Part shown: positions 43,978 to 64,000 of the stretch, piece by piece
Position numbering within the stretch: position 1 is the stretch's first letter
How the letters are laid out: each line of letters begins with the position of its first letter
Assembly: GCA_965601925.1 (NCBI GenBank)
Contig: OZ271854.1
Location: forward strand, 1,280,001 to 1,344,000
Length of the DNA stretch: 64,000 nucleotides
Source: Alkalispirochaeta sp.
GTDB taxonomy: Bacteria; Spirochaetota; Spirochaetia; DSM-27196; Alkalispirochaetaceae
Reading direction: 5' to 3'
Program-made: the position numbers and the translations under genes
The notes under the pieces: model-generated
Database searches by the model: none
Seen by the model: the letters and a program-made list of their open reading frames with translations, nothing else
Told to the model about the DNA's origin: nothing

Positions 43978-44098
43978 CTAATCCTCCTGAGGCTTCTTTT
44001 TATTAGATTACTGAAGTAATAGCAATATATTATCATATATCACTACTACTTCTTGCAATGTCCGCAACATCGTCGCCGAACTGCTCGGCGTGCTTGAT

Positions 44099-44188
44099 TT
44101 CCGTCGTTGTCCGCGTCGTCGTCCCACATCCGCATCCGGTGAAACGGTACGTCCATCATCGCAAGGCCCCGTCCCAGCCGCGCTTCGT
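44099..44188 (-). pseudogene. 90-bp stub of an orphan toxin cassette (cassette E)
   Basis: Matches 53012-53101 (EARLGRGLAMMDVPFHRMRMWDDDADNDG), then homology stops abruptly. Confidence 0.9.
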
Positions 44189-44553
44189 GTGTTCTCGGGC
44201 GCGTCTCCCCCAAGTTTCAGCCAGGGGACCGGCCGACGGTGTCGATCACTCAGCAGGAGGAACTTGGAGTCGCGCTCGCCACCGCCGTCCGTTCCCCTGC
44301 GGGTTCCAGCAGAGATGTTTCGTCCTCAGGTGATGTGTGGGGGAGACCGGGCTACGGGTTCCAATTCCTCAGCCCGGCTCGGTGTGGTGATAGGTGCTTT
44401 TACAGAAGTCGGACAGCTACATTTACACCGCGACGACCGCTGTTCGGCTCACTTCGGCCGCATACCCGAGCAGCACGCATTGCGTGCGACCAGGGGCCGA
44501 TCGCCAGCGGTCGTCGTCCGGGCCTGTGGGATTTCCTCCCTCCGCCCTCGCGC
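44189..44553 (-). repeat. Cassette leader element, copy E (core plus type-2 extension)
   Basis: The core is near-identical to 53102-53265. The extension is homologous to 49816-49979, with an extra insert in its hairpin loop. Confidence 0.9.
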
Positions 44554-45357: not shown

Positions 45358-45824
45358 TCAATATCCCGGAACCGTCGGGACCCCATTCGGAACGCTCCAA
45401 TCAATTGAATACTCCAACGGATCCCATGGCATCGCCGGTTGGGGTGTACTCGGCGACACAATAAAGAAATCAAATCGGTGGATCTCGTCCAACCGCACCT
45501 CCGTCCGGTCCGATCCATGTGACGACGGACTTTGATACGGATTCATCAGCTCAATGATCAACTCCCCGTCCTCATCCAGACGGAATCCACTCATCATCGT
45601 CGAATGGTGACTCTCGCCCGATTGGGTACTGTTTAGTCGCACGTGCGCCACAAACGCATTCGTGGAGCGATCCATCCCGTTCAGCAAATCGATCGTTACC
45701 TCCGCACCCTCAAACACTTCCTGAAAGTTGAACCGATCCCCCGTCAGCAGCTCCATCGACTCCTCGACCGTGAGGAGCGTATCGTCGCTGAACGCACCCT
45801 CCTCGCGCAGTCGATTGTTCGCTT
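45358..45824 (-). pseudogene. Truncated duplicate of the papain/C39-like toxin tip
   Basis: Near-identical to 48026-48490. Cut by the IS so that the GYGC (predicted catalytic Cys) segment is missing. Confidence 0.88.
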
Positions 45825-45841: not shown

Positions 45842-46642
45842 CTAGACCACTGCTTGAGTGAGTCCGTCCTCAAAGCTTCGCCAGATTTCTTCCGGCGTGT
45901 GATTGCCAAGCGAGCTGTGTGGCCGGTACCGATTGTACTCATCGCGCCACAAAGCCAGTTTCTCCTGAGCGTCCCTCACGCCCAGGAACAGGTTCTCGTT
46001 GAGGAACTCGTCGCGTAGCTTTCCGTTGAAGCTCTCGACAAAGGAGTTCTCGATCGGCTTGCCCGGCGTGATCAGACACTGCTGAATGCCGCGCTGGATC
46101 GTCCACGCGATCATGGCCCGGGACGTGAACTCCGGCCCGTTATCACTCTTCAAACATTCCGGCTCACCGTGCATGATCATCGATTGCTCCAACGCCCGGA
46201 TGACATCAGCGCTCGAACATGAACGAGCAATTCGTGCTGTGATCAGATACCGTGTGTACTCGTCCAACACGACCAGACACTTCAACGACCGTCCGGATTC
46301 AGTCGTGTCGAAAACGAAATCCAATCCCCAGATCTGATTGGGCCGCATCGCTGCACTGGCCCTATTGCGCTGCACGATGAGCTTCTTCCGGCGTCGTGAG
46401 CGGAGCATCAACTGTTCCTCGCGATAGATCCGGTACACTTGCTTGTGATTCGCTTCACTATGGTCTCGCCGCAGTAACACGTGGATCCGACGATACCCGA
46501 ACCGCTTGTGCCTCTCGGCCAGTTCCTTGATGCGCGCCCGAATCCGAAGATCGTTCGGGTTCTTTGCCTCATACCGACATGTCGATCGATGCAGCGACGC
46601 CAGTTCGCACGCTCGTCGCTCACTGACCCCATGGTGTTTCAA
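45842..46642 (-). CDS. IS3 transposase OrfB (DDE integrase core)
   Basis: GYRRI, NHK, WGLDF, SDNGPEF, GKPIENSFVESFNGKLRDE, YNRYRPHSSL. Probably fused to OrfA by a programmed frameshift. Confidence 0.95.
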   Translation of the reverse strand: MKHHGVSERRACELASLHRSTCRYEAKNPNDLRIRARIKELAERHKRFGYRRIHVLLRRDHSEANHKQVYRIYREEQLMLRSRRRKKLIVQRNRASAAMRPNQIWGLDFVFDTTESGRSLKCLVVLDEYTRYLITARIARSCSSADVIRALEQSMIMHGEPECLKSDNGPEFTSRAMIAWTIQRGIQQCLITPGKPIENSFVESFNGKLRDEFLNENLFLGVRDAQEKLALWRDEYNRYRPHSSLGNHTPEEIWRSFEDGLTQAVV

Positions 46643-46677
46643 CGCCCCGACAGCCGATCGTCGCTGATGAGGCGTCG

Positions 46678-46941
46678 TCAGTTTTTTGACAGCACCTCCT
46701 TCATCGCGTCGATCTCAAGCGCCTGGTTGGCGACCAGCCTTTTCAGTCTGGTGTTCTCGTCTTCCAGTTCTTTCAGTCGTCGCGCCTCGCTGGTTGTCAT
46801 TCCGCCATAGCGAGATTTCCACCGGTAAAACGTATTCTCCGCAAACCCGTACTTCCGACAGATCTCCTTCGCCGGAACACCGGACTCGGCTTCCCCCAAG
46901 ATCGCAATGATCTTCTCAACCGAATACTGACCCTTCTTCAT
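46678..46941 (-). CDS. IS3 transposase OrfA
   Basis: HTH plus leucine zipper (TFYRWKSRYGGM..RLKELEDENTRLKRLVA). An AAAAAAC slippery-type run lies at its 3' end (46681-46687). Confidence 0.93.
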   Translation of the reverse strand: MKKGQYSVEKIIAILGEAESGVPAKEICRKYGFAENTFYRWKSRYGGMTTSEARRLKELEDENTRLKRLVANQALEIDAMKEVLSKN

Positions 46942-47012: not shown

Positions 47013-47077
47013 CCACCGCATAGTCGACCGCCGCGCCGACCGCATTCGCTCCCAGGCTCACCAGTGAGTTCACCGCA
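47013..47077 (-). pseudogene. 65-bp 5' stub of orphan cassette D (beta-type module)
   Basis: Matches 52406-52470 (AVNSLVSLGANAVGAAVDYAV). Truncated by the IS. Confidence 0.88.
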
Positions 47078-47078
47078 T

Positions 47079-47185
47079 AAGGATTTGGACACGTCTCCCG
47101 ATGTATCATGAGAGGGAGCGGCGAACGGCGCCGGTCACTCAGCAGGAGGAACCTGAAGTCGCGACCGTCACCGCCCGCCGCTCCC
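47079..47185 (-). repeat. Cassette leader element, divergent copy D (core only)
   Basis: Retains TCACTCAGCAGG, GAAGTCGCG and CGTCTCCC. The stem arms have changed in sequence but remain complementary. Confidence 0.85.
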
Positions 47186-47258
47186 AGCTTTGCATGTGGG
47201 CGTGTCTTATTCTCGGATTAGATAACAGAGTTTGAGGAAGCAGGATTCTTTGGGCAAT

Positions 47259-48011
47259 CTACGGGAAATCTCGCATGGTTTCAGACCGTTGATCGGGATG
47301 CAACACAGGGTGCAATATCAAGTCGCCTTCAAACGCGTTCTCAGGATTCTCGATTGGCGAGACCATACGCAACCAGAACTGGTCTTCTCGCATCATCCGA
47401 TGCTCTTCGATCACCTCAAACACGATGCGGTTCCCAAATGTATCGTCGGTTTCCAACGTGTTCTCGTCGATCCATCGTACGAGATGGGTTCCTTTGGGCC
47501 AAACTCCGGGATGTCCGTCAGCGACAGATAGAGCAAAATCCCAATGCTCCGAGGAGTCAACATAACGATATTCTCTAAACATATCTGGCGATTCCGAGCT
47601 TTGCCAAACACCTTCTAGTGTTAAATTATCCAATGCTGCATCATTATTCTCTACTTTTATGAAATAGCCTGCTAATATATTGAAACGAGCAAGGGTTAAC
47701 TGCAAAGCCCGACCTTCATTCAGAAGCTCGTATCCTAAAGAGTTTGGATCATTGCCTATCGGTTCAATTTGAGTGTCCGTTATAGAATAAGTTTGATAGT
47801 CATTCTCTAGATGAGAAAACGATGCTTTTATGACTTGACGATCATTAACATATTCTGGCAACGACCGAAACGTAATCGGCTGATCAGGTAACGGCACCAA
47901 ATCGATATTCTGTATTCCCCACCCGTGCTCAAGGAGATACGCCGTTCGGTCTTGCGCCGGTACACAGGCAATGCATACAAACACCATGATACCCATCAAC
48001 ATCTTCTGCAT
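47259..48011 (-). CDS. Putative immunity protein (exported/lipoprotein), allele 1
   Basis: Starts 15 bp after the cassette C stop, with a GGAG RBS. Leader ending CIAC. AT-rich middle. Confidence 0.78.
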   Translation of the reverse strand: MQKMLMGIMVFVCIACVPAQDRTAYLLEHGWGIQNIDLVPLPDQPITFRSLPEYVNDRQVIKASFSHLENDYQTYSITDTQIEPIGNDPNSLGYELLNEGRALQLTLARFNILAGYFIKVENNDAALDNLTLEGVWQSSESPDMFREYRYVDSSEHWDFALSVADGHPGVWPKGTHLVRWIDENTLETDDTFGNRIVFEVIEEHRMMREDQFWLRMVSPIENPENAFEGDLILHPVLHPDQRSETMRDFP

Positions 48012-48025
48012 CTGATCTATCTCCC

Positions 48026-49666
48026 TTAATATCCCGGAACCGTCGGGACCCCATTCGGAACGCTCCAATCAATTGAATACTCCAACGGGTCCCATGGCAT
48101 CGCCGGTTGGGGTGTACTCGGCGACACAATAAAGAAATCAAATCGGTTGATCTCGTCCAACCGCACCTCCGTCCGGTCCGATCCATGTGACGACGGACTT
48201 TGATACGGATTCATCAGCTCAATGATCAACTCCCCGTCCTCATCCAGACGGAATCCACTCATCATCGTCGAATGGTGACTCTCGCCCGATTGGGTACTGT
48301 TTAGTCGCACGTGCGCTACAAACGCATTTGTCGAGCGATCCATCCCGTTCAGCAAATCGATCGTTACATCCGCACCCTCAAACACTTCCTGAAAGTTGAA
48401 CCGATCCCCCGTCAGCAGCTCCATCGACTCCTCGACCGTGAGGAGCGTATCGTCGCTGAACGCACCCTCCTCGCGCAGTCGATTGTTCGCCTCAATACCG
48501 GTCATGTCGTCACCGGTCATCGCGTTCGCCGCATACAAGGCACTATACAACACGCATCCGTATCCACCTAATGAGACAAACGGTACCTCGCCTTCGTAGC
48601 CATATTCTCGACTTACAAATGCTCTGTTGTCAGGGTCGGTAGCGAACTCCTCAAACTCCTCGCGACTCAGGCTGCTCTCAAATTCAGAGAGATTACCCTC
48701 AAAGTTAGGACCAGCTTCACGTTGAAGGAACCGATTATACGCATCATCTATCCGTTGTTCGTTGATCTGGTCTACGGTTTCACGGCTCAACGCCTCGCCC
48801 AACGCTTCCCGCCAGTTCGCCGCATCGCTCTGATACTCGCCGGCCGTATTCAACTCAGGGAAGAAATGATCCATCGGCCCTTCATTCGGTCGGTAGTTCT
48901 CCGGGTTCAAGAGCCCCGCCACAATCGCCTGCCCAAACGCCTCGTTCCCTTCCAGTCCCCACGCATCCATCAGGTTTCGGTACGTCTCTCCCGTTCGCCG
49001 GTACGCACTCGCCTCCGTCGTCTCGCCCAATACCGCGCGCTCCACCAGGTGCGTCGCTTCATGCGCCATCGCACTTCCCAACATCGCCGAGCTCTCCCGG
49101 TCGTTCCCCGTCAATGCTCGCGACAACACGATCGTGTCCGGGTTGTCCGAGTCATACCGTCCGTACTCGCCCTCCGCCATATCGTCAAACTCACTCTTAA
49201 TCCGTCGCTCCCACACCGCACCCGCTAAGGCCGTGTCGCGTCGGTCCCGGCTGTACGATAACGTGTTCGCCGCATTCAGGATCGCTCGGTTCTCCACACC
49301 CCGTTGCGTCCCCAACGCGCCGCCGACCTTCGCACTCGTCACCCGTACCACATCCGATAATCCTTCCAGGCTCGTCGCTACCAGGTCCAGTCCGACGTCG
49401 TATCCGCCGCTCCCCACGTTGAACAACGCACCGCCTCCGCCAAGGTCCATCTGCAGCACGCCCGCCGATAACTCGTTCCCCTTCTCGTCGGTGATCCCCA
49501 GCATCCGCCCCATGTTTACCACGTTCAGCGATGCGCTCCCGTCGATCGCGTACTCCGTCGCCGCGCCAATCGCACTCGAGGTGATCGTCGCCGCGCTCCG
49601 TAATGCATCCAAGTTAAAAGTATTCTCCGCGAGGGCATCGCCGATCCCGTCGGTCGTTAGACGCAC
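48026..49666 (-). CDS. Orphan toxin cassette C: alpha module (HEATH) plus papain/C39-like peptidase tip
   Basis: 49002-49650 is near-identical to 60133-60781 of the main toxin. The tip has GYGCVLYS...HHSTMMSG...LMNPY, a Cys-His-Asn order like papain-fold peptidases. Whether it has a real start is uncertain. Confidence 0.75.
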   Translation of the reverse strand: MRLTTDGIGDALAENTFNLDALRSAATITSSAIGAATEYAIDGSASLNVVNMGRMLGITDEKGNELSAGVLQMDLGGGGALFNVGSGGYDVGLDLVATSLEGLSDVVRVTSAKVGGALGTQRGVENRAILNAANTLSYSRDRRDTALAGAVWERRIKSEFDDMAEGEYGRYDSDNPDTIVLSRALTGNDRESSAMLGSAMAHEATHLVERAVLGETTEASAYRRTGETYRNLMDAWGLEGNEAFGQAIVAGLLNPENYRPNEGPMDHFFPELNTAGEYQSDAANWREALGEALSRETVDQINEQRIDDAYNRFLQREAGPNFEGNLSEFESSLSREEFEEFATDPDNRAFVSREYGYEGEVPFVSLGGYGCVLYSALYAANAMTGDDMTGIEANNRLREEGAFSDDTLLTVEESMELLTGDRFNFQEVFEGADVTIDLLNGMDRSTNAFVAHVRLNSTQSGESHHSTMMSGFRLDEDGELIIELMNPYQSPSSHGSDRTEVRLDEINRFDFFIVSPSTPQPAMPWDPLEYSIDWSVPNGVPTVPGY

Positions 49667-49979
49667 CTCCCCCGAGTTTCAGTCAGGGGGACCGGACGGC
49701 GGTGTCGATCACTCAGCAGGCCCTTCGGGCCAGAAGTCGCGCTCGTCACCACCGTCCGTTCCCCAGCGGGTTCCAGCAGAGATGTCTTGTCCTCAGTGAT
49801 GTGAGGTGGGAGACCGGACTACGGGTTCCAATTCCTCGGCCCGGCACGGTGTGGTAATAAGTGCTTTCTACAGAAGTCGGACAGCTGCAGTTACGCCACG
49901 ACGACCGCTGTTCGGCTCACTCCCGATCGCCGGCGGTCGTCGTCCGAGCCTGGAGGATTTTCTCCTTCCACCTTCGCGC
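49651..49979 (-). repeat. Cassette leader element, copy C (core plus type-2 extension)
   Basis: Shares the core hairpin and invariant motifs with the other copies. Extension hairpin CGACGACCGCTG...CGGCGGTCGTCG. Confidence 0.9.
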
Positions 49980-50106
49980 CTCGGCGAGTTGTGCAGCGTT
50001 TGATTCACTCACGCGTTGACGCGCCATGGCGTTCTGTCTTGTTCTTTCAAAAACGGCATGTGGTCCCCCTCCTCCACGATGAGGTTCTGGACACCACACC
50101 CACAGG

Positions 50107-50649
50107 TCAGGGAACGTCATCCCGGGTGATTTCAGTAACCACCGCGTCGATAATCAAGAGGTCTTCTGTTGTAGGTAGCAGCACTTCTATCTGCTCTGCC
50201 GTCACCGTGAAAGTAAAAAACCGTTCCGGCCCTACCTCGTTGCTTACTTCGGTGCCGAGAAACTGAAACAAATAGTACACCGTCATCACTCTTTCGGCAC
50301 GTTCAATGTGCTGCACTTCCGTTCGTGCCGCGCTACTCGCATACTCAACGTATCGAATGCCGGTCTCATCGAGGTAAAACGTTCCAAAATAGAACCCATC
50401 TTCGTCTTCTACGTCGATTGCTGAAAGGTCCGGTATCACCGCGAACAACTCATCGAGTGTTCTCGGCTCCACCGGTTCCTGCACTTCGGAAACAGACTCC
50501 TCAGCCTCCGCCGGTACCGGATCGGCGGTCATGACCTCCCGTGCCGATTCCTCCCGCGCACTTCCGCAACTCCATGCTACGAGAAAAAGGAGCACCACCA
50601 GACTCATCCTCACGACCATCATTCCGCGACTGGTTTGAACGTTTACCAT
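50107..50649 (-). CDS. Putative immunity lipoprotein for cassette B
   Basis: The start overlaps the toxin stop (ATGGTAA). Lipobox-like VAWSC. Confidence 0.78.
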   Translation of the reverse strand: MVNVQTSRGMMVVRMSLVVLLFLVAWSCGSAREESAREVMTADPVPAEAEESVSEVQEPVEPRTLDELFAVIPDLSAIDVEDEDGFYFGTFYLDETGIRYVEYASSAARTEVQHIERAERVMTVYYLFQFLGTEVSNEVGPERFFTFTVTAEQIEVLLPTTEDLLIIDAVVTEITRDDVP

Positions 50650-53126
50650 CGTGGTCTGAACTCCCAGTGCAAGTGCGGTCCCGTCGAGTTTCCGGTATTC
50701 CCCACGTTCCCAAACTGGTATCCCGGCGGGAGGGTGAATCGGTAGATGTCCGTCGCCCGCGCCGCTTGAAGCAGATCGTTGAGTTGGTTCGAGGCACGCG
50801 TATTAGGCTGCAAATGCCCATAGATCATATCGAAGTCGGGCGTCCTGGTTCGCAGATTCAACCCATACCCGGCACTCGGATCATTTGGGTTATCCCACCC
50901 AAGCGGATTCATGCCCACTATCACCGTCTCCTCCTGTGTCGTAAACAACGGATGGTTCTGTCCAAAGGTCCTGAGATCTATTGCCTCACCACCGCCCCAG
51001 CCATGCTCACGGCCATCCTCGTAAAGGGAGAATGTCGAAATGTCATCTCTTCCTTGAATCGGATCGATCACTCGCCCATCGCCGATTAACTCATACATCG
51101 GGTTGTTGTTGTCCAGGCTCCACTCGTCCCGGATTCGACCGAACGCCTGTGCAACGTCGTCTTGCGAGTACTGTTCGTTTCGCTCTGCGTCCAGCAACCC
51201 CGGTGCTCCGAACGACCCGTACCGCTGTCCATACAACGCCGCGTCGTACTCCTGGGCAAATCCCTCCATCGAGTTCGCCGCCTCGTACTGCGCCGCAATC
51301 TCCGGTGTCATCGTACCGTTCCGCAGCGCCGTCATGAAGTCAGTCTCGGCGCTCTCTTGCGCCGCATTCACCGCAGCTACCATGCTCCCACCGAACGCAC
51401 CTACGTTGTCGATGTAGTCCCGCTGCATGAAGTATCGCGCCTTGAAGGCTGCTCCCGGATCAAGGGTATGATCTGCGTCGTTCTTCACGTCCGTCGCCCC
51501 TCCGTTGGTCGTGAACGTCCCGTTCTCATACGTCCACCCGGCGTCGATCATCATCTGGTTCGCCTCGGCCTCCGTGATTCCCAAATGCTCGGCAAGCGAC
51601 GCCGCATAGCCACCCTCTCCCTCAAACTCTCGAAGGAGTTCGTCATTCTCGTCGTATACGCCTTTCCGGCCGTCAAAGATCAACTCGCCTTGTGCGGTGA
51701 GTTTCCAATAATCCGCACTCGAATCATACGCCGTGGCCGCATACGCCGCAAAGTCCCCCTGGCCCGCCTGCGCCTTGAGGTACTGGTTGACGTCCTCGGC
51801 AAGGTTCGCGTCGTTCATGATGAAGTCCATCCCATACGTCTCCGCAGCACGCATCGCAAACTCCGTATGGCCCGTCACCGCGCTCACCGTCTCCGCGTTG
51901 TCCCCGTCCGCGATCCCGTCTCGGTAGCTCTCATGACTCAGCACACTCGCCGCCACCAGCTGCTCCTCCAAACTATCCCCGATCGCTCCCAGGTAGATGT
52001 CCTTCCCATTCCCTCCCGCAATCGTCTGCGCGCGTGCTCCTTCGCTCCCCGGTGCCCCGGTCAGGTGTAGCCGGTCCACTCCCTCCAGGATGTTCCCGTA
52101 AGTACTTCGCTCCCCGCGCTTCCCAAAGCTCCATGTGGCGCGTAACGTGTTCTCCGCCGCGGCGTTGTGCGTGTTCTCCTCGATGTATCGGTCGATCCGG
52201 GCCCGCTGGTGTAGGACGTTCGCTCCCATCATTCCGTTCGCCACCAGGTCGACCCCGATGTCGTAGCCGCCGCTTCCCACGTTGAACAGTGCGCCGTTAC
52301 CGCCCAGGTTCATCTCTAACGCACCCGCCGAGAGGGCGTTCCCCTTCTCATCTTCGATTCCCAGCATCCGGCCCACGTTCAATACGTTAATCGCCACCTC
52401 GCGATCCACCGCATAGTCGACCGCCGCGCCGACCGCATTCGCTCCCAAGCTCACCAGTGAGTTCACCGCACCCATGTGCTCCCGGGAGAATCCCGCCAAG
52501 TCGTCCATCTTCGCCAAACTCCCGAAACCGGACTGCGCCAACCCTTGCGCCGCGCCGCCGGCGTAGCCCGCTACCGCACTCTCGCCGAAGGTCGATCGGC
52601 GGAAGCCCCGTTCGTCAAAGTCCATGTCAAAGCTCGCGTCGATCGAGAATGAGTTGATCGCGCTGCTCATCGCCGTCGTCGCTACCGCCTGCGTCGTGCT
52701 CACCCCCACGTTCACCGCCGTCTGCGTGATCGCTCTGCTGCCGTCGACCGCCTTGCCGGCAAGCGTTCCCAACTGGTCGAATCCCTTCGCCATCCCGGCG
52801 CTCGCCAGGCTCACTGCCGTGCTCTTCGCAAAGCTCCCCAACGCGTCGTCCGCGTCCGCGTATCCCGTCGCGATGTCCGTCACCGTAAACGCCGCATTCG
52901 TCGCGATCGTTGCCGCCAACGATACGCCCGCTCCCGCTCCCAACGTCGCCACCGAGACCACCACTCCCGTTACCGTCACGATGTTCGGGGCGCCGAACAG
53001 TCCGTCCGGACTTCCGTCGTTGTCCGCGTCGTCGTCCCACATCCGCATCCGGTGAAACGGTACGTCCATCATCGCAAGGCCCCGTCCCAGCCGCGCTTCG
53101 TGTGTTATCGGGCGCGTCTCCCCCAA
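50643..53126 (-). CDS. Orphan toxin cassette B: core fragment, beta module and M23-like peptidase tip
   Basis: 52536-53101 matches main toxin 60813-61378, and 51738-53101 matches 55782-57145. Tip motifs H..AIDLR, YGHL, GNVGNTGNSTGPHLHWE. Confidence 0.82.
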   Translation of the reverse strand: MGETRPITHEARLGRGLAMMDVPFHRMRMWDDDADNDGSPDGLFGAPNIVTVTGVVVSVATLGAGAGVSLAATIATNAAFTVTDIATGYADADDALGSFAKSTAVSLASAGMAKGFDQLGTLAGKAVDGSRAITQTAVNVGVSTTQAVATTAMSSAINSFSIDASFDMDFDERGFRRSTFGESAVAGYAGGAAQGLAQSGFGSLAKMDDLAGFSREHMGAVNSLVSLGANAVGAAVDYAVDREVAINVLNVGRMLGIEDEKGNALSAGALEMNLGGNGALFNVGSGGYDIGVDLVANGMMGANVLHQRARIDRYIEENTHNAAAENTLRATWSFGKRGERSTYGNILEGVDRLHLTGAPGSEGARAQTIAGGNGKDIYLGAIGDSLEEQLVAASVLSHESYRDGIADGDNAETVSAVTGHTEFAMRAAETYGMDFIMNDANLAEDVNQYLKAQAGQGDFAAYAATAYDSSADYWKLTAQGELIFDGRKGVYDENDELLREFEGEGGYAASLAEHLGITEAEANQMMIDAGWTYENGTFTTNGGATDVKNDADHTLDPGAAFKARYFMQRDYIDNVGAFGGSMVAAVNAAQESAETDFMTALRNGTMTPEIAAQYEAANSMEGFAQEYDAALYGQRYGSFGAPGLLDAERNEQYSQDDVAQAFGRIRDEWSLDNNNPMYELIGDGRVIDPIQGRDDISTFSLYEDGREHGWGGGEAIDLRTFGQNHPLFTTQEETVIVGMNPLGWDNPNDPSAGYGLNLRTRTPDFDMIYGHLQPNTRASNQLNDLLQAARATDIYRFTLPPGYQFGNVGNTGNSTGPHLHWEFRPRW

Positions 53127-53370
53127 GTTTCAGCCAGGGGACCGGCCGACGGTGTCGATCACTCAGCAGGAGGAACCTGAAGTCGCGCTCGCCACCGCCG
53201 TCCGTTCCCCTGCGGGTTCCAGCAGAGATGTTTCGTCCTCAGGTGATATGTGGGGGAGACCGGGCTCTCCGGGGCTCCGCGGCTGAATCGGCGGGCTACA
53301 CGGTACGCCCGCCTGCCGCTCCGGTCTCACGAAGTGAGACCCACTTCGCGGCCCCTTCGATCCCTCGCGC
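53102..53370 (-). repeat. Cassette leader element, copy B (core plus type-1 extension)
   Basis: Outer IR GTCTCCCCCA (53116) / TGGGGGAGAC (53251) and inner hairpin 53137-53210. The extension is near-identical to 57796-57905. Confidence 0.92.
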
Positions 53371-53559
53371 TTGTTAACGGATGTATTGTCTACGGAAGCA
53401 GCAGGTTGCCGCAGGAGCGTTGTAACACAGGCAATAGCGGATTGGTGGAACAACGCCATGTTTAGTATCACGGCGAGGCGAGACTGTGTCGAGAAAGCAC
53501 CTTGGTGCATTCCCGTTTCTACCAATCACCTGGTTATTGTTGTCATTTCGCCTTAGATA

Positions 53560-54600
53560 CTACGGTCTCTCCTCAGGGGCCAATGCTTGATACTGCACCG
53601 GTCCTGTCGACAAAACCGAACCATCCACAATCCGGCGCTCCAACTCAAACACTTCGCCAATCTCGTATCCCTCACCGAATCCCTCGCTATCCATAGCATA
53701 CACGACTGTGTCGTAATGCTCAGTTGGATCCTCGTCAACAAAGCCGTAGATATAGATGATTGATTGTCTATTTGGCATTCGAAGTACGTTTCGCGTACTC
53801 CAGGTCGCCGTGTTTTCATTGAGAAATAGGAATTGTCCCCCGGGACTTACTTGAAGGATTGTAGGATTGAGATGAAGATGCCCACTGTATACCTGAATGC
53901 TGGGCAGGACATGGGCCGTCGAACCATCCGGTCTATACAGTCGTAGATCGGACGGATCGGTTGGGTCTGTTCCATCCGACGCTCCTATTCCCACAATGTA
54001 CTCACCCCATTGTTCCCAGTCGTAGAAGCTCTCGTTCCTAACGTTCCGTCCCCGGTAAAAGTCGTTTATTGCGATCCGCGCTAACGTTTCGGAATAAGGC
54101 CTAGGCGTTCTTGGTGTTATAGCCGCACGTTGTTCCCGAACTATAATCGGTGTAGTCGGATAAACCGCACCGCTCTCAATCGAATAGACAAACCGCTCAT
54201 ACTCACGTCGAACGCCTGTGGGTGCGGAAGCGTCGATCTCGAATACTACCATAGGAGAGAAAAACATCGACTTGTTATCCCTAGACGGAGTGAGAGAAAC
54301 ACCGAATACTTCGTCGTATGACGCTACTCGTACGACGGTCCCGGCAATGAGGTCCGCCACGAATATGTCGATATTCTGAAGATCTGCTCCCCGTCGTTCC
54401 TCCACGACTTCTCGTATCGGTATGACCAGACGATGATCGTCCAGCCACAGATAGCGAGGTCTTATCTCAGACGCTCCGACAACACTATCAGATACATGCA
54501 CCGCATACTGTAATGCAAGGTACTTTTCGTCCGTAGGCTGCGCGTTTGCCGTTGGTGCGAGCGCCGCCATCAAGGCGACGATTATCCCTACGACTGCCAT
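53560..54600 (-). CDS. Putative exported immunity protein for cassette A
   Basis: Overlaps the cassette A stop. Signal peptide MAVVGIIVALMAALAPTANA|Q. Exact start uncertain. Confidence 0.72.
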   Translation of the reverse strand: MAVVGIIVALMAALAPTANAQPTDEKYLALQYAVHVSDSVVGASEIRPRYLWLDDHRLVIPIREVVEERRGADLQNIDIFVADLIAGTVVRVASYDEVFGVSLTPSRDNKSMFFSPMVVFEIDASAPTGVRREYERFVYSIESGAVYPTTPIIVREQRAAITPRTPRPYSETLARIAINDFYRGRNVRNESFYDWEQWGEYIVGIGASDGTDPTDPSDLRLYRPDGSTAHVLPSIQVYSGHLHLNPTILQVSPGGQFLFLNENTATWSTRNVLRMPNRQSIIYIYGFVDEDPTEHYDTVVYAMDSEGFGEGYEIGEVFELERRIVDGSVLSTGPVQYQALAPEERP

Positions 54601-57600
54601 AGGTTGTGTATATTTCTCATAATCAACTCCATTGCCCAGTCGCTCGCCTCGGGCGTGACGAACTGATCGTCCATCCACGGTATGAGTGAGTGTATATCAT
54701 TTCCGTTCTGTCGGTAGAGATCGATAATCGTATTCGGCATCATCCTGTTAGTCTCATGTCCCCCAAAGATCTTGGACCATGATGTCTCCGGATGCGTACT
54801 AAGAGTAGGATATGTAATGGTAGGGTCTTGCGTTGCCCAAGTGTTCTCGATTGGATCAACTAAAACGTTCGTGATGAAGTCCAAATGTGGTCCGGTAGAC
54901 TCGGCTCCGGTGTTGCCGATACTGCCGATTCTCATTCCCGCCGGCACGCCACTCAATCCTCGCCCCGTTGCGGTTACCCCCCTCGTGCCGAAGACTCCTA
55001 AGTAGTCCATGATGGTGTTCCCGTGGAGGTGGGAATACTGCCCTTGCACTGTCGCGCCAGTCGATATCGTTTGTAAGCCAAAGATCGGATCATCTTGCAA
55101 CTCGACGTGACTCTCTTCCCGCGACCGCACTCCCACTTCACCCCCGGTATACCGGCTGCCGTCCTCTCGATACACCGCAAAGTCTGCGCCCTCGTGATAG
55201 CGATTTGTTGGCTCACCGTGCCGATTCAACCGGAACCGGTGTCCTTGCGGCGAAGTCAACAGCGTATGGTCCCCCTCGCCAGGATAGATGATCGGGTCGC
55301 TCGGATCAAATGGCCCGACATTCGCGTCGTTCTGTATCAGCAAACCGCTACTCTGTGCCGCCACCAACGCCTGGTCCAATGTCGATATCCCTGCGTCCGT
55401 GACGCCGTTCCGCATCAAGTTATCGGCTATCCGCGACACATCCGCGAACTTCTCAGTCCCAGACCGGAATCGTAATAATGTATCCGCGTGCCGACTTGTG
55501 TCCGGTCCCATTCGAAACACACCTGGCTCCGTTGCTGGCGCGTCGGTCACCGCGTCCGCCACCAGATCTATGATCGTCTCGTCCATGTCCTCGTGACGCA
55601 CCCGCCCGTCTTCGGTCAGACCGCTCCCATTTCGACGCAATGCTTCTTCTACCGCCGCTCGCTTGTCCGGCGAAAGCGCACTCAGGTCAAAATCCAGATT
55701 TCCATCTTCCTGCCAGCCCCATTCACCATTCTCATCCTGCACCAACGCCCAGAAGTCCTGGTCCGATCGGTACGCCTGCGTCGCATACGCCGCAAAGTCC
55801 CCCTGGCCCGCCTGCGCCTTGAGGTACTGGTTGACGTCCTCGGCAAGGTTCGCGTCGTTCATGATGAAGCCCATCCCATACGTCTCCGCCGCACGCATCG
55901 CAAACTCCGTATGGCCCGTCACCGCGCTCACCGTCTCCGCGTTGTCCCCGTCCGCGATCCCGTCTCGGTAGCTCTCATGACTCAGTACACTCGCCGCCAC
56001 CAGCTGCTCCTCTAAACTATCCCCGATCGCTCCCAGGTAGATGTCCTTCCCATTCCCTCCCGCAATCGTCTGCGCGCGTGCTCCTTCGCTCCCCGGTGCG
56101 CCGGTCAGGTGCAGCCGGTCCACTCCCTCCAGGATGTTCCCGTAGGTGCTCCGCTCCTCGCGCTTCCCAAAGCTCCACGTGGCGCGCAACGTGTTCTCCG
56201 CCGCAGCGTTGTGCGCGTTCTCCTCGATGTATCGGTCGATCCGGGCCCGCTGGTGTAGGACGTTCGCTCCCATCATCCCGTTCGCCACCAGGTCGACCCC
56301 GATGTCGTAGCCGCCGCTTCCCACGTTGAACAGCGCACCGTCACCACCCAGGTTCATCTCTAACGCACCCGCCGAGAGGGCGTTCCCCTTCTCGTCTTCG
56401 ATCCCCAGCATCCGGCCCACGTTCAGCACGTTAATCGCCACCTCACGGTCCACCGCGTAGTCGACCGCCGCGCCGACCGCATTCGCTCCCAAGCTCACCA
56501 GTGAGTTCACCGCACCCATGTGCTCCCGGGAGAATCCCGCCAAGTCGTCCATCTTCGCCAAACTCCCGAAACCGGACTGCGCCAACCCTTGCGCCGCACC
56601 GCCGGCGTAGCCCGCTACCGCACTCTCGCCGAAGGTCGATCGGCGGAAGCCCCGTTCGTCAAAGTCCATGTCGAAGCTCGCGTCGATCGAGAATGAGTTG
56701 ATCGCGCTGCTCATCGCCGTCGTCGCTACCGCTTGCGTCGTGCTCATCCCCACGTTCACCGCCGTCTGCGTGATCGCTCTGCTGCCGTCGACCGCCTTGC
56801 CGGCAAGCGTTCCCAACTGGTCGAATCCCTTCGCCATCCCGGCGCTCGCCAAGCTCACCGCCGTGCTCTTCGCAAAGCTCCCCAACGCGTCGTCCGCGTC
56901 CGCGTATCCCGTCGCGATGTCCGTCACCGTAAACGCCGCATTCGTCGCGATCGTTGCCGCCAACGATACGCCCGCTCCCGCTCCCAATGTCGCTACCGAG
57001 ACCACTACTCCCGTTACCGTCACGATGTTCGGGGCACCGAACAGTCCGTCCGGACTTCCGTCGTTGTCCGCGTCGTCGTCCCACATCCGCATCCGGTGAA
57101 ATGGTACGTCCATCATCGCAAGGCCCCGTCCCAGCCGCGCTTCGTTCCGATAGAAGTCTTCCATGATCCGGCCCATCTCGCCGTAGCCCGCTTCCTGCAC
57201 TCGCTCCGGGTCGTCGCTCTTCATCACCGGTGCGTAGCCGACGTGGAAGTTGAATAGTCCCTCCGTGTCGTGGTGCAGGTACTCCTCCTCGCCGCTCTCT
57301 TCATTCTCCCGCGTTCGGTCGTAGCCCGCAGCGTGCGTCCAGCTCGCCTCGACCGCCGCAAAGCGCTCTTTGAGCTCGCCGTTCAGCTCTTCGACGCTGG
57401 TCGCCGCGGTCCCGTCGTCCTTCTGGTCGTCGCTCCGTCCAAAGATCAGGATCTGATATCGCTCCATCTCTTCGTACGCCGCCGCGATCATCGTCTGGAT
57501 GCCTCGGCTCGACAGGCCGTCCAACGACTCCTCCGAGAGGTCCACCTGGGGTGCAAAGACCGGCGCCGTAAAGTCATCATACGTTCCCGCCGTCTGCGTC

Positions 57601-57631
57601 TCCCGTTCGATTCCTCCCATCAGCGTCTCGT
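54588..57631 (-). CDS. Orphan toxin cassette A: long core fragment, beta module and M23-like tip
   Basis: 56580-57631 matches main toxin 60813-61864. Tip motifs HEGAD, YSHL, GNTGAESTGPHLDF. The frame stays open into the leader element (to 57728), but there is no evident native start. Confidence 0.82.
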
Positions 57632-57905
57632 GGGACTTCGGGCGCGTCTCCCGCTCGTTCAACCAACGGAACGACCGGCGGTGTCGATCACTCAGCAGGC
57701 CCTTCGGGCCAGAAGTCGCGCTCGCCACCGCCGTCCGTTCCAGGCAGGATGAAGCAGGGGGTGTTTCGTCCTTATGATAGGTTGGTGGGGGAGACCGGGC
57801 TCTCCGGGGCTCCGCGGCTGAATCGGCGGGCTACACGGTGCGCCCGCCTGCCGCTCCGGTCTCACGAAGTGAGACCCACTTCGCGGCCCCTTCGATCCCT
57901 CGCGC
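57632..57905 (-). repeat. Cassette leader element, copy A (core plus type-1 extension)
   Basis: Core hairpin GGAACG...CGTTCC with the invariant motifs. The extension contains GGTCTCAC-gaa-GTGAGACC and GGCGGGC..GCCCGCC hairpins. Confidence 0.92.
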
Positions 57906-57925: not shown

Positions 57926-58256
57926 TTATGTGAGCCGTGCCATCGTGGCTACACGCCAAACCGAGAGGCGATGGTAGCCCGACCAGTGCTTTCGGGTCTT
58001 CATCATCATTACGAGCAACTTGCGACGTGAGGCTTCGTCTGTTTTTCGCGGCTTCTCATGACCGCTCGGAGGTAGTGGTGTGTCGTGCAGGTCGACGAAC
58101 TCGTGGAGCATTGCACGAGGCCGCCTCATTTGACATACCACAATGCCCGCGGAACGTTTCGTCGGCTTTCATTTCCACAAACTGCTCGCTCATCCCAGTC
58201 GTTCCACCTCGGTGCTCGTCGTTTTATCACTCAGATGAGGTTTTGGACCCCCACGC
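57926..58256 (+). mobile_element. Decayed IS remnant (integrase-core transposase C-terminus and right-end-like motif)
   Basis: The + frame ends ARPVLSGLHHHYEQLAT*, resembling the LGGLHHxY tail of rve-type transposases. GATGAGGTTTTGGACCCCCAC at 58234 resembles the ends of such elements (from recall, unverified). Confidence 0.5.
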
Positions 58257-58531
58257 CCTTACTTTCCAGGTTGCATTACCAATACGAGCGCGCAGCGCAC
58301 GTAGCATCTCCTCCATATGTTTCACGAGTGCGCCGCTACAATGGTACCGGATTGGTAATCGATAGGTGGAATATGGCGGTGGAGCGCTTCGGATCGACGA
58401 GACTCTATACCCCCGAGGTCACCTCGTAAGGCTTTCGTCTCCACCGACCGCTTACTTATCGCGGCTTCTTTATAGGCTCATCGTCCGAATGTGGTTCGGA
58501 CCCCAATGCCACGTGAGTCTTTGACCCCACG

Positions 58532-58951
58532 CTATTTTTGACCGTCTTCTGGAATACGTATACCGTACTCTTCCAGCCTTAGAATATCTTCTCTTGTTGC
58601 TTCTCGATACGTGTTACCAGGGAACTCGCCAGGCCCACTTATCTGTGTAATCTCGATTTCTCCATCATTCATGGATTGCTGAATTGAGTTCAATCCCCCC
58701 GTAGGACTTACATGGTAAATCACACCAGAGTCTGATGTAGCACCGATAGCCACTGAATAGCTATCCCATTCGAGGTCTACGAGCACTACAAACCAGTAGT
58801 TATCAAACTGCCTCAAAATAAGAAACTGTGGAATGAAACTCCCAACATTCCTAGTAGATAGCGTCCAGACACCACCCAAATCATCATTCTGGGCGCTAAG
58901 AGTCGCAACAAATGCAAAAGAGACTATTAGTACAATGATTACTTTCTTCAT
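58532..58951 (-). CDS. Putative exported immunity protein for the main toxin
   Basis: Starts 14 bp after the toxin stop, with a GAGAGGA RBS. Signal peptide MKKVIIVLIVSFAFVATLSA|Q. AT-rich. Confidence 0.8.
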   Translation of the reverse strand: MKKVIIVLIVSFAFVATLSAQNDDLGGVWTLSTRNVGSFIPQFLILRQFDNYWFVVLVDLEWDSYSVAIGATSDSGVIYHVSPTGGLNSIQQSMNDGEIEITQISGPGEFPGNTYREATREDILRLEEYGIRIPEDGQK

Positions 58952-58964
58952 CTTTATCCTCTCA

Positions 58965-61900
58965 TTAATGTTCCCAGGGTCGGGCACTCCAGTGCCGCCA
59001 CGAACGGAATAGATTGATTTCCCAACCGGTTATGTTACCACCATCATCATACACTGGATCATACCTTGTGCCGGGAAACTGCGATCCATCAAACCACCCT
59101 TCTCCGGTTTGAGGATTAGTGAAACCTGGTCCATGTTCCGGATGATTCCATATTCGTTCATGGTGTGCGTGAGCACCGCTCCCAGTGCCATGCAAACTAG
59201 TTGGAAAAGGTGCAATCTGCTCACCGGCTCCTATGATATCCCCAATGGCATGTCCTACTAAATCATCCGGATTCATATGCAAGATACGATCGGCATAACT
59301 CGTTCCTAAGACACTCAACAGAATCCCGTCCGTTGCATCCGCTCCCGGTATCACTTGTGCATAGCCAGGAGCAAATACTCCGATACCACCGGCCGTATCG
59401 ATTGCCGGATGTGCATAGTCCAGCCGCGCGGGACCTTGGATGTCAATCATCTGGCGCTCTGTGCGGAACCCTTGTGTAATCTCGGCTTCGGGTGTCACCC
59501 CCATGCTCGGCAACAAATACTGCTCGTTGTATGTTCCCATGCGCTGCTGCACGTCGCTCCACACCGCATTCGCCATCTGATAATCGCCATTCACCACCAA
59601 CTCTTCATACGCATTCAAAAGCCCGTCAATGGCGTCCCGTTCCGCTACCTGTTCCGTGATTCTGTCGCTCTCCTGGAATACCAACGACTCCTCAAGGCTT
59701 CGTGGGTTCCCGGCGGACGTCACGTACTCTTGTCCGTTCCACTCCGCGCCGGACGACGTCATCAGCGCATACGCCATGTCGGCGTCCGTCATATTCATGA
59801 CCTCTTCAGCGGGATATCCCGCCGCGACCAGATGGGCCACCGCATTACCCTCACCGACGTACTCCAACAGCGACTCACTGTATCCTAACTGGTGTCCTGT
59901 TTCGTCTACCGCAACATCGATAACGCGCCCAGTATCGGCATCGCGTAATGCTCGCTCTCCATTCCAGGTGATCCTCCCATCACGATGACGCGAAAAGTAG
60001 TCCACCGGTCCTCGATTGGGGAGGTAATTCTCAGGATTCCGTAACGCATCCTCAATCGCTTGTGAGAAATCCGCATCACCCTCCAACCCAAAGACATCCT
60101 TCAAGCGCTCGTATGTCTGCAGTGTTCGATTATACGCACTCGCCTCCGTCGTCTCGCCCAATACCGCACGCTCCACCAGGTGCGTCGCTTCATGCGCCAT
60201 CGCACTTCCCAACATCGCCGAGCTCTCCCGGTCGTTCCCCGTCAATGCTCGCGACAACACGATCGTGTCCGGGTTGTCCGAGTCATACCGTCCGTACTCG
60301 CCCTCCGCCATATCGTCAAACTCACTCTTAATCCGTCGCTCCCACACCGCACCCGCTAATGCCGTGTCGCGTCGGTCCCGGCTGTACGATAACGTGTTCG
60401 CCGCATTCAGGATCGCTCGGTTCTCCACACCCCGTTGCGTCCCCAACGCGCCGCCGACCTTGGCACTCGTCACCCGTACTACATCCGATAATCCTTCCAG
60501 GCTCGTCGCTACCAGGTCCAGTCCGACGTCGTATCCGCCGCTCCCCACGTTGAACAACGCACCGCCTCCGCCGAGGTCCATCTGCAGCACGCCCGCCGAT
60601 AACTCGTTCCCCTTCTCGTCGGTGATCCCCAGCATCCGTCCCATGTTTACCACGTTCAGCGATGCGCTCCCGTCGATCGCGTACTCCGTCGCCGCGCCAA
60701 TCGCACTCGAGGTGATCGTCGCCGCGCTCCGTAATGCATCCAAGTTAAAAGTATTCTCCGCGAGGGCATCGCCGATCCCGTCGCTCGTCAGGAAGTTCCC
60801 CACCATGCCGTTCGCCAACCCTTGCGCCGCGCCGCCGGCGTAGCCCGCTACCGCACTCTCGCCGAAGGTCGATCGGCGGAAGCCCCGTTCGTCAAAGTCC
60901 ATGTCGAAGCTCGCGTCGATCGAGAATGAGTTGATCGCGCTGCTCATCGCCGTCGTCGCTACCGCCTGCGTCGTGCTCACCCCCACGTTCACCGCCGTCT
61001 GCGTGATCGCTCTGCTGCCGTCGACCGCCTTGTCGGCAAGCGTTCCCAACTGGTCAAATCCCTTCGCCATGCCCGCGCTCGCCAGGCTCACCGCCGTGCT
61101 TTTCGCAAAGCTCCCCAACGCGTCGTCCGCGTCCGCGTATCCCGTCGCGATGTCCGTCACTGTAAACGCCGCATTCGTCGCGATCGTTGCCGCCAACGAT
61201 ACGCCCGCTCCCGCTCCCAACGTCGCTACCGAGACCACCACTCCCGTTACCGTCACGATGTTCGGGGCGCCGAACAGTCCGTCCGGACTTCCGTCGTTGT
61301 CTGCGTCGTCGTCCCACAGCCGCATCCGGTGAAACGGTACGTCCATCATCGCAAGGCCCCGTCCCAGCCGCGCTTCGTTCCGATAGAAGTCTTCCATGAT
61401 CCGGCCCATCTCGCCGTAGCCCGCTTCCTGCACCCGCTCCGGGTCGTCGCTCTTCATCACCGGTGCGTAGCCGACGTGGAAGTTGAATAGTCCCTCCGTG
61501 TCGTGGTGCAGGTACTCCTCCTCGCCGCTCTCTTCATTCTCCCGCGTTCGGTCGTAGCCCGCGGCGTGCGTCCAACTCGCCTCGACCGCCGCAAAGCGCT
61601 CTTTGAGCTCGCCGTTCAGCTCCTCGACGCTGGTCGCCGCGGTTCCGTCGTCCTTCTGGTCGTCGCTCCGTCCGAAAATCAGGATCTGATATCGCTCCAT
61701 CTCTTCGTACGCCGCCGCGATCATCGTCTGGATGCCTCGGCTCGACAGGCCGTCCAACGACTCCTCCGAGAGGTCCACTTGGGGTGCAAAGACCGGCGCC
61801 GTAAAGTCATCATACGTTCCCGCCGTCTGCGTCTCCCGTTCGATTCCTCCCATCAGCGTCTCGTCGATAATCACGCGTCGTTGCCACTCCATTCCTTGAC

Positions 61901-64000
61901 GACGGTATCCTCCGCGCTCCATCGTCGTTTGCAGGCTGCCTTCCACTGCGCGGTTCGCGTCGTTTATCCCGTCGGTCACCGCGACGACCCCTTCGCGGAT
62001 CTGTTCCCGCATTTGCAATGCCGTCACGCGCATCGCGCGCCGTTGAATCTCCTCGCCCAACTCGTCCGATAGCGCTCGGGCGCTCCGCGCGCTCTGCGTC
62101 GTCGAGCGTACCCGCGGCAGATACGCCGCCACGATCGGGCTCCCGCCGGCGCGGTCGGCGATCCGGCCCGCCTCGCGCACGATCGTCGAGAGCATCCGTC
62201 CGTCGGTCGCCTCCCGCACCGTGTGTTCCAGATTCCCCACCTCAAGGTCCAGATCCGGGACCGCGATCGCTTCGCTTTCGGCGATCAGCCGTTCGGCGTC
62301 CAGTCCCACTTGTCGCGCCGTCGCCTCGCTTCCGGCGCGTACCGCGTGCTGCGTCGTCCGTTCGATCCATTCCGTACGCGATTGCGTCATCCGGTCGTAG
62401 CGGGCGTTCCACACCGCCACCGCCTCCGCATACGCCTCCTGCGTCTCTTCCTGGAACCGTTTCCGCTGTCCCGCCAACCGGACCGATCCCGCCTGCCACT
62501 CCGTGAGGCCCGTCGCCACGAGGCTGTTCATTCGGACCGTCCAGTCGTCCTCGCGGCGCATCAGCGTCTCGTACTCCATGGTCAGGCGGTGGGATTGCGC
62601 GGTATGGACGCCGCCCAGGCGCATCCCCGCCGCGTCGTGAATGTGCTCGGCGATCAGCTCCAGCTGAAATGCCCGCGCCTCGTCGTTAAAGGTCGCAAGG
62701 GCGCCGGTCGGCGCTCCCGTCGTACCGTGGCGAATCAAGACCGACTCCATCGATCCCTGTCGATACGCCATGTGGTCGGCGATGTCGTAGGCGGGGTCGG
62801 CAAAGCGCGTGCGCGTCACCGTCTCCAGCTCCGCTTCGGTGACCTCCTCGCCCCGCAGATAGCGTCCCAACACCGTCTCGTAGGATAGCTGGTCGTTCTG
62901 TTGCGCCGTCGCAAGCTCCGCGATCCGGTCGGCGACCGCCGTTCCGGCGGTATGGACGTCCGATGCCAACCGCGTTTCGGCGGCGGCAAGGACCGAGAGG
63001 CTCGTCGCGCGCTCCGATGCGCTGCCGCCGCTCACCACCTCGGCGATCATGGCGCTCAGTTCGGCCGAAATCGCACCGGTACCCGACGCGGTCAGGGAGG
63101 TACGCACCTCCGCCGCGGTGGGGCGTTTGCCCGCCAGTACGCGCAGCTCGGCGGCCTTCGTATTCTGATCGTCGAGCGCCGTCGTCACTCCTCCCACGAG
63201 TTCCATCAGCGTCACACGTTGATCGTCCCACGCATAGTCGGGTATCTGGCGCCGCAGGGTCCGTATTCGTTTTCCCTTCCGCCGGCGGACCGTGCGCCAC
63301 CATCTGAGATAGCTGCGCTGCTTACTCTCCGCCTTCGGGTCGACATAGTCGCGCACGACCTTCGAGGCGTCGTCGGCGATAAAGTCGACGCTAAACGCTT
63401 CGTCCACCGGGCCGTCGCCGGCGACCAACATCGTGAAGAACCGATACGCTCCGTGGCTGAGCCCTGCGGAGCGAATCTGGTCGTAGGCCGCGCGCGTCTC
63501 CCGTTCCAGTTTCCACCGTACCGTACCCTCGTATGTCAAAACCCCGGTTTGCCAGTCCACGTACTCGTCCATGTTCAAGGAGATCTTGTCCAACAGGTTG
63601 TTAAAGCTCGCATCGTTGAGAATGGTCGCCTCTACGACGTTGTGGTCTGCGTCGGCGAACGCGTCGGTAAAATGGATTTCGTAGTACAGTGCGAGTCCCA
63701 TGGTCCGCAGCGCGTCGCCGCCGAGTTGGTTCATCGCCAACGCCCACGATGCGAGGTCGGTCGAAAAGGTCTCTTCCCAATCTCCCGAGAAGTAGCTCGC
63801 CGCATGAAAGCGTTCCTGATCCCCCGCAATCCGGCCCGTGCCGACCGCGTCGTAGTCCGGTGCAAAGGTGAAATCGTCGCCACGCGCCAATTGACCGGCC
63901 GTCCGCGCGACCTCCATTTGGCTCGCCGCCAATGCCCCTTCGGCTCCCGAGGTCTTGACCGCCAACGTCTCCCGGACCACCGCCGCCTCTTGGTAGGTCA
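58965..64000 (-). CDS. Large polymorphic toxin (5' part outside window) with alpha module (HEATH) and M23-like tip
   Basis: The frame is open to the window edge (>1670 aa). It has a long helical region, a Gly/Ala hydrophobic segment, AMAHEATH, and a tip with HPAID...LHM...GSGAHAHHE. Its internal segments are duplicated in the downstream cassettes. Confidence 0.85.
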   Translation of the reverse strand, partial: TYQEAAVVRETLAVKTSGAEGALAASQMEVARTAGQLARGDDFTFAPDYDAVGTGRIAGDQERFHAASYFSGDWEETFSTDLASWALAMNQLGGDALRTMGLALYYEIHFTDAFADADHNVVEATILNDASFNNLLDKISLNMDEYVDWQTGVLTYEGTVRWKLERETRAAYDQIRSAGLSHGAYRFFTMLVAGDGPVDEAFSVDFIADDASKVVRDYVDPKAESKQRSYLRWWRTVRRRKGKRIRTLRRQIPDYAWDDQRVTLMELVGGVTTALDDQNTKAAELRVLAGKRPTAAEVRTSLTASGTGAISAELSAMIAEVVSGGSASERATSLSVLAAAETRLASDVHTAGTAVADRIAELATAQQNDQLSYETVLGRYLRGEEVTEAELETVTRTRFADPAYDIADHMAYRQGSMESVLIRHGTTGAPTGALATFNDEARAFQLELIAEHIHDAAGMRLGGVHTAQSHRLTMEYETLMRREDDWTVRMNSLVATGLTEWQAGSVRLAGQRKRFQEETQEAYAEAVAVWNARYDRMTQSRTEWIERTTQHAVRAGSEATARQVGLDAERLIAESEAIAVPDLDLEVGNLEHTVREATDGRMLSTIVREAGRIADRAGGSPIVAAYLPRVRSTTQSARSARALSDELGEEIQRRAMRVTALQMREQIREGVVAVTDGINDANRAVEGSLQTTMERGGYRRQGMEWQRRVIIDETLMGGIERETQTAGTYDDFTAPVFAPQVDLSEESLDGLSSRGIQTMIAAAYEEMERYQILIFGRSDDQKDDGTAATSVEELNGELKERFAAVEASWTHAAGYDRTRENEESGEEEYLHHDTEGLFNFHVGYAPVMKSDDPERVQEAGYGEMGRIMEDFYRNEARLGRGLAMMDVPFHRMRLWDDDADNDGSPDGLFGAPNIVTVTGVVVSVATLGAGAGVSLAATIATNAAFTVTDIATGYADADDALGSFAKSTAVSLASAGMAKGFDQLGTLADKAVDGSRAITQTAVNVGVSTTQAVATTAMSSAINSFSIDASFDMDFDERGFRRSTFGESAVAGYAGGAAQGLANGMVGNFLTSDGIGDALAENTFNLDALRSAATITSSAIGAATEYAIDGSASLNVVNMGRMLGITDEKGNELSAGVLQMDLGGGGALFNVGSGGYDVGLDLVATSLEGLSDVVRVTSAKVGGALGTQRGVENRAILNAANTLSYSRDRRDTALAGAVWERRIKSEFDDMAEGEYGRYDSDNPDTIVLSRALTGNDRESSAMLGSAMAHEATHLVERAVLGETTEASAYNRTLQTYERLKDVFGLEGDADFSQAIEDALRNPENYLPNRGPVDYFSRHRDGRITWNGERALRDADTGRVIDVAVDETGHQLGYSESLLEYVGEGNAVAHLVAAGYPAEEVMNMTDADMAYALMTSSGAEWNGQEYVTSAGNPRSLEESLVFQESDRITEQVAERDAIDGLLNAYEELVVNGDYQMANAVWSDVQQRMGTYNEQYLLPSMGVTPEAEITQGFRTERQMIDIQGPARLDYAHPAIDTAGGIGVFAPGYAQVIPGADATDGILLSVLGTSYADRILHMNPDDLVGHAIGDIIGAGEQIAPFPTSLHGTGSGAHAHHERIWNHPEHGPGFTNPQTGEGWFDGSQFPGTRYDPVYDDGGNITGWEINLFRSWRHWSARPWEH

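Follow-up and report, generated by a model that had tools for sequence, protein, structure and literature searches.

What joins one and the same repeat to toxin-like genes at an exact distance? The question is raised by a 64,000-nucleotide (nt) stretch of Alkalispirochaeta sp. (contig OZ271854.1, positions 1,280,001 to 1,344,000; hereafter the window, from genome G000). On its minus strand, the 3' half of a gene for a 3110-amino-acid (aa) polymorphic-toxin-like protein is followed by five 5'-truncated copies of that gene, with a repeat (elements A to E) immediately before each. We propose, with a probability of roughly 0.65, that at every junction a repeat related to the Flavo-1 RNA motif has been joined by its fixed 3' end, as DNA, to the toxin-like gene at a short AY|G-type core (the bar marks the joint) by a putative enzyme. 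The arrangement of repeat and orphan is itself a real, precise junction class and a variant of known things.

In A to E, the toxin sequence begins 18 nt after the GGAG of the element, the element ends on AC or AT, and the toxin restarts on G at a codon start (5/5; first toxin bases 57629, 53099, 49648, 47076 and 44186, respectively). A preliminary description of the window had claimed this fixed spacing and the restart on G after AC or AT, and both were recovered base for base. The parent sites that it placed were also found at codons 2146, 2308 and 2507 of the main gene (positions 61862, 61376 and 60779), with a GGT|GCG variant of cassette A/B as the parent of D, and the four long element copies do start with GCGCGA(G/A)G. 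A second toxin locus in the same genome contributes junctions F (C1:4151411) and G (C1:4146883), both at +18 and on AC|G, and the combination of +18 spacing and AY|G is thus present in 7/7 toxin-joined copies of G000. Since AY|G occurs at only 5.6-6.7% of positions in the toxin region, the spacing and the motif lie far beyond chance, which supports the earlier view of these junctions as precise and mechanism-made. B and E count as one event, so that six independent joints are available in G000, and the tail sequences of these joints differ.

The repeat end and its target have between one and seven bases in common at the joint. Among the ten joints with a homologous parent, seven (A, B/E, C, F, G, and G17-1 and G17-2 from genome G017) have AC within the first four shared bases; joint G28a from genome G028 shares CTTTAC, and the joints of D and G28d are without a shared AC. 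Three of the eight copies in G000 that are not joined to a toxin also end in AC at +18, here onto the TAG stop, on the opposite strand, of a convergent gene (C1:4264854, 3262173 and 1271532). Because neither the distance nor the three letters at the joint vary among the toxin-joined copies of G000, the junctions are likely DNA joints rather than products of RNA splicing. The features of the locus are as follows.

58965..64000, minus strand, 3' part of the full-length polymorphic-toxin-like gene (3110 aa), which runs on to G000:C1:1348297 and contains the three main-gene parent sites
58532..58987, minus strand, small gene behind the full-length gene, candidate immunity gene
57630..57905, minus strand, element A, Flavo-1-like repeat of 276 nt, GCGCG...CCCAC
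54588..57629, minus strand, cassette A, orphan toxin-like 3' part from main-gene codon 2146, with a weak M23 peptidase match at the tip
53560..54678, minus strand, small gene behind cassette A, candidate immunity gene by its position, with no family
53100..53370, minus strand, element B, 271 nt, with a 5' half 99% identical to A and a 3' half 98% identical to E
50643..53099, minus strand, cassette B, orphan from codon 2308, with a sub-cut-off M23 peptidase match
50107..50649, minus strand, small gene behind cassette B, candidate immunity gene
49649..49979, minus strand, element C, 331 nt, with a compensated end helix AGGCGC/GCGUCU
48026..49648, minus strand, cassette C, orphan from codon 2507
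47259..48068, minus strand, small gene behind cassette C, candidate immunity gene
47077..47224, minus strand, element D, 3' part only, with an AT end
47013..47076, minus strand, short toxin-like fragment behind D, interrupted by an IS3 element
45842..46941, minus strand, IS3-family transposase open reading frames (ORFs)
45358..45820, minus strand, orphan tip without an element, a copy of the cassette C tip that starts at the IS3 end
44187..44553, minus strand, element E, 367 nt, with a small hairpin inside a tetraloop and the same junction as B
44096..44186, minus strand, short toxin-like fragment behind E

The truncated alternative 3' tips are homologous to the full-length gene and a small gene stands behind each, which is the hallmark of polymorphic-toxin orphans; G000 contains two further full-length paralogues of the 3110-aa gene. 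Apart from the M23 tips, no Pfam or NCBIfam model matched the body of the 3110-aa protein, and an M23 peptidase match was above the cut-off in two of the ten tips scanned and below it in two, with nothing relevant in six. Since the body is without a family match and only some tips match M23 peptidase, we infer that the long family is a toxin from its gene architecture. Its comparison with the Atlas returned only an M23 lead, below 0.9, and its named homologues are hypothetical Spirochaetia proteins. The toxins of these loci are likely antibacterial. A second short repeat (GTGGGG..CCAAAACCTCAT-like) lies behind immunity-gene stops and upstream of elements, at minus-strand window positions 58225-58255, 58510-58545 and 50075-50110 and at locus L025.

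The preliminary description had further claimed that the toxin always resumes in the same frame. This holds for A to E and fails for junction G, in which ACG is itself a Thr codon (the homologues, F and the T2 sequences, read TGG ACG GGN), so that the toxin is out of frame. Junction G nevertheless keeps the identical spacing, as expected if DNA is joined. A homopolymer error at this junction was considered and rejected, for no indel was found in the short-read contigs X1 and X2, which come from the same sample and lend no independent support. An AC|G target alone would be expected to give phase 0 in 46-54% of cases, and five in-frame events out of six in G000 are therefore unremarkable (p = 0.11 against a background of about 0.5). 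The caveat already raised, that a Y|G target preference biases the frame, thus explains the frame within G000. Outside G000, the frame is kept at 5/8 junctions. Over all genomes, 10 of the 14 independent junctions share the frame of the window and four do not, and most of the frame bias follows from where ACG happens to fall in these codons.

The repeat is structured, with covarying helices, is 130-370 nt long, and carries nested variable inserts. The fold obtained from a cross-lineage alignment is built on a long stem whose GA-rich internal loops are symmetric; it also comprises an inner hairpin capped by a GNRA-type loop, a 3' domain that varies between copies, and a GCGC/GCGC helix that closes the structure. 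In this alignment, 90.1% of cells were paired, compared with 77.7% after shuffling and 27-46% after sliding, and both sides change in 11/34 pairs; the set comprises nine related sequences, largely from two lineages, and the structure was derived from those same sequences. In element B, the 5' half corresponds to A and the 3' half to E, a mosaic that shows crossovers within the repeat. In G000, 22 copies were listed, of which 10 lie in toxin loci that make up 1.1% of the genome; most copies elsewhere are intergenic, with varied, housekeeping neighbours. A hairpin of about 40 nt is inserted in tetraloops of several copies (window 44455-44497; G000:C1:4142900, 4265150 and 4313500). At G000:C1:4313402-4313740, two repeat remnants stand behind a third toxin-immunity pair with no toxin fragment attached.

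The Flavo-1 RNA motif (RF01705; Weinberg et al. 2010) is known and has no assigned function in the available portions of the sources (PMC2864571, PMC9723704). Its description in the accessible part of PMC2864571 resembles our repeat in the long stem with GA-rich internal loops, the variable central insert, the many copies per genome and the lack of a known function, and the GCGYNAGGGAU...AGCGGA.AGCCCG flanks also appear in published alignment rows there. Compact relatives, found with the element's own model, match RF01705 at 33.6, 32.5, 30.9, 30.2 and 25.7 bits; the best of them (30.9-33.6 bits, E 4e-5 to 0.015) stay below the gathering cut-off of 42 bits. Elements A and B can be aligned with them. 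Since the window copies themselves gave no RF01705 match and the relatives score below the cut-off, the repeat is called Flavo-1-related and not a member. The window copies also differ from Flavo-1 in their long inserts, outer closing helix and 3' domain.

The repeat was then followed through the order (99 genomes) and through a sample of 149 further genomes of the phylum, using model R1, which covers the first 85 nt because full-length covariance models were too long to calibrate. The family was found in 28/99 and 0/149 genomes, respectively; copy numbers are lower bounds, as scoring was limited to 45 candidates per genome in the order and 30 in the phylum. The toxin search matched in 27/99 genomes of the order. 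The repeat heads 7/8 orphan fragments in G000, 3/4 fragments of the array in G028, which belongs to another family, and 5/7 Rhs orphans in G017, and the copies that stand before most of the orphan tip-immunity modules point the same way, across all three genomes and both toxin families. In G028, the repeat is a compact 200-nt version with a TAC|CGA end at +20, +20 and +23, and one further copy precedes an Rhs fragment. The five copies before orphan Rhs cassettes in G017 represent two independent junction types (G17-1 accounts for four copies); two Rhs orphans there are without the repeat, and a sixth copy has no toxin behind it. The loci L025 and L002 add one junction each, L002 being found again in further records and counted once. 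Parent sequences are not in hand for L025, L002 and G28b, and that of G28c is diverged. Pattern scans of public collections picked up 11 stretches from genomes, 10 from metagenomes and none from viruses; just two distinct loci among them are real.

In genome G041, an element adjoins a piece of an N6-methylase gene that runs on the opposite strand (PF02384, E 2e-4), which suggests that the joining ignores strand and frame. At G041:C257 (L147), four Flavo-1-like copies space a cassette-like array of PIN, cupin, GNAT-like and IS66 genes. In L147 and L133 together, three copies adjoin short opposite-strand fragments resembling pieces of type I methyltransferases; Pfam confirms one of the three, and the other two presumed methylase fragments had no family match. 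Toxin-antitoxin genes (PIN, HEPN, HicB, HepT) often adjoin the repeat (L118, L125, L127, L128, L131, L002 and L147), and single Flavo-1-like copies stand between the genes for the large and small subunits of ribonucleotide reductase in two families (L136 and L138). The toxin/Rhs arrays of family f10 (G030:C1:1019876-1045068, L061-L063; G038, L175 and L177) have a different hairpin of about 70 nt between cassettes, CCCC...GAGCTG...CAGCTC...GGGG, possibly a parallel system. At L107:600-1500 (G019:C55), a reverse transcriptase (RT) gene lies behind a small ORF and an AAC-rich repeat, an arrangement that we take to suggest a diversity-generating retroelement.

If the junctions are DNA joints, the AY|G-type core common to the repeat end and the target would be the site of joining, and two routes can be envisaged. 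The repeat may insert into a toxin gene, after which recombination between two copies would remove the 5' part of the gene. Alternatively, the end of a copy behind an immunity gene may capture the 3' part of an incoming allele in a one-ended event anchored by flanking homology. The data do not separate these options. By either route, modules of repeat, truncated toxin and immunity gene would pile up, crossovers within the repeat would shuffle them, and homologous tip exchange may then draw on them as on any other silent orphan module. We offer more tentatively the view that Flavo-1-type repeats are dedicated capture sites: a putative host enzyme would fuse the 3' end of such a repeat with AY|G sites of incoming toxin genes, and new tip-immunity modules would thereby be added to the array.

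Several results weigh against enzymatic DNA joining. No Y1 transposase, GxxExxY nuclease, IS110 transposase or RT was found in G000. The Y1 transposase model PF01797, which REP/RAYT or IS200/IS605 ends would call for, matched in 0/5 genomes, and the IS110 transposase that IS110/IS1111 ends would need (PF02371), absent from G000, G028 and G041, is present in G009 and in G017, in the latter away from the array. The five tyrosine recombinase matches in G000 all lie outside the toxin loci, and no recurring recombinase was seen among 141 ORFs adjoining about 40 copies. Integron attC/attI sites have the boxes RYYYAAC...GTTRRRY, which were not seen in the elements. Neither a clean insertion with a matching empty site nor a circle was seen. 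The +18 AY|G rule is restricted to G000: AC ends occur at +11, +15, +20, +20, +21, +23 and +25 at the junctions outside it, or there is no AC, and AY at +18 was found in only 2/26 copies of other genomes. The outcome that the preliminary description had named as refuting, further junctions with variable spacing and other frames, is thus seen in part, with a spacing of 11-25 nt in other genomes. The 10/14 junctions sharing one frame leave a residual bias (p 0.004 at an expectation of 1/3; 0.04 at 0.45). The only copy flanked by Rhs sequence on both sides, L002, is short of about 130 codons, as estimated from the Rhs gene of G017, and the toxin arrays of G030, G038 and G001 are without the repeat. 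GNRA-type loops and G-U pairs fit RNA as well as single-stranded DNA. AY before the 5' GCG, in 15/51 anchored copies against a background of 12%, speaks in favour of the joining, but the test was post hoc, dropped 10/61 unanchored copies, kept one mis-anchored copy and counted related copies.

The explanation that survives best beside enzymatic joining, though we consider it unlikely, dispenses with a dedicated enzyme: repeats would gather behind the stops of immunity genes, as behind other stops, and microhomology-guided deletions would fuse them to downstream toxin remnants. The intergenic position of most other copies beside housekeeping genes agrees with this, as do the spacing that differs between genomes, the joints that cut into the repeat at L002, L025 and G28d, and the orphans that have no repeat (two in G017 and one in the window). 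However, random deletion should leave ragged ends, whereas six independent joints in G000 with differing tails fall at exactly +18 on AY|G, against a background of about 6% per site.

Less probable again is a role of the repeat as a translation leader, in which ribosomes would start in its last hairpin, N-terminally truncated toxin pieces would be made and the frame would be under selection. The 10/14 junctions in one frame would fit, and a TTG, GTG or ATG lies in frame 6-12 codons upstream of every junction from A to F. These starts, however, fall within homologous stretches and so do not count independently; the frame is not kept at G, G17-1 (four copies), L002 and G28d, no Shine-Dalgarno sequence was seen by eye at a usable distance, and the products would be without an export signal. 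In-frame translation from within the element, which had been offered earlier as an option, is not general, since in-frame stops lie 10 codons upstream of the junction in B, C, E and G28a, and the elements of G28a and G28b contain no in-frame ATG, GTG or TTG. For B, C and E, these stops also preclude read-through from further upstream.

The earlier suggestion of RNA-level exon exchange, in which a part derived from a group II ribozyme would trans-splice the main toxin mRNA to orphan tips, is highly improbable and without support: the GCGCG...AY ends do resemble group II boundaries, the RNA folds are stable (z -2.4 to -3.9) and alternative 3' exons have a precedent in C. tetani in the accessible text of PMC3919590, but domain V (RF00029), whose absence had been reported from the start, had no match in G000 (150 of 359 candidates scored) and none on elements, RT (PF00078) had none in G000 (96.7% complete), and region and single-element scans against Rfam yielded no meaningful match, group II included; complementarity to the 20 nt before the parent sites, the place for pairing of exon- and intron-binding sites (EBS-IBS), reaches at most 5-7 nt, no more than 24-99% of random sites offer, the 5' GCGCG pairs with the 3' end instead of being free, G would splice out of frame, and the same repeat adjoins opposite-strand genes. 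The contig joints examined were explained by repeats and the paralogous loci. A resemblance to group II domain I, initially suspected from sequence motifs, was also rejected, as the core is Flavo-1-like and the 85-nt R1 gave no match at E <= 10 to L105 and L106, where 5' ends of group II introns are present.

Orphan C-terminal/immunity modules of the polymorphic toxins Rhs, CdiA and MafB are known (PMC4436062, bioRxiv 10.1101/2025.05.08.652813), and the parts of these reports available to us describe the same layout of a full-length gene followed by 5'-truncated alternative tips, with conserved parts 80-99% identical and small genes downstream. Here, in contrast, each orphan starts at a defined repeat end. 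Within the text available for PMC5361080, homology-facilitated illegitimate recombination, a hypothetical process, is the only printed explanation of how orphan modules enter arrays. That model, made for effector-immunity and Rhs arrays, likewise lets an array grow by one homologous anchor and one non-homologous joint, but its illegitimate joint has no defined sequence and comes with no evidence for an integrase, whereas a conserved structured repeat whose end is fixed forms the joint described here. The alternatively spliced group II intron C.te.I1 (PMC3919590) and the CP group II ribozymes (PMC8637638), as far as the accessible portions of both papers go, also place repeated structured elements before alternative 3' coding parts; they differ in that domain V/VI is present in copies and a single 5' splice site, recognised through EBS1-IBS1 pairing, serves them all, and none of these features is present here. 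A link of Flavo-1 to toxin cassettes and a fixed joint was not found in the portions of the literature consulted, and a supplementary Flavo-1 commentary of PMC2864571, if any, may bear on this novelty.

With a fixed-end repeat at the head of most orphans, in three genomes and across two toxin families, the growth of orphan arrays and the function of Flavo-1 become linked questions, and exact, testable joints are at hand. If true, joining by the repeat would be one way in which arrays of spare toxin tails grow, and, should the repeats indeed be capture sites, they would build libraries of polymorphic toxins in the manner of an integron, and Flavo-1 would have its first defined function.

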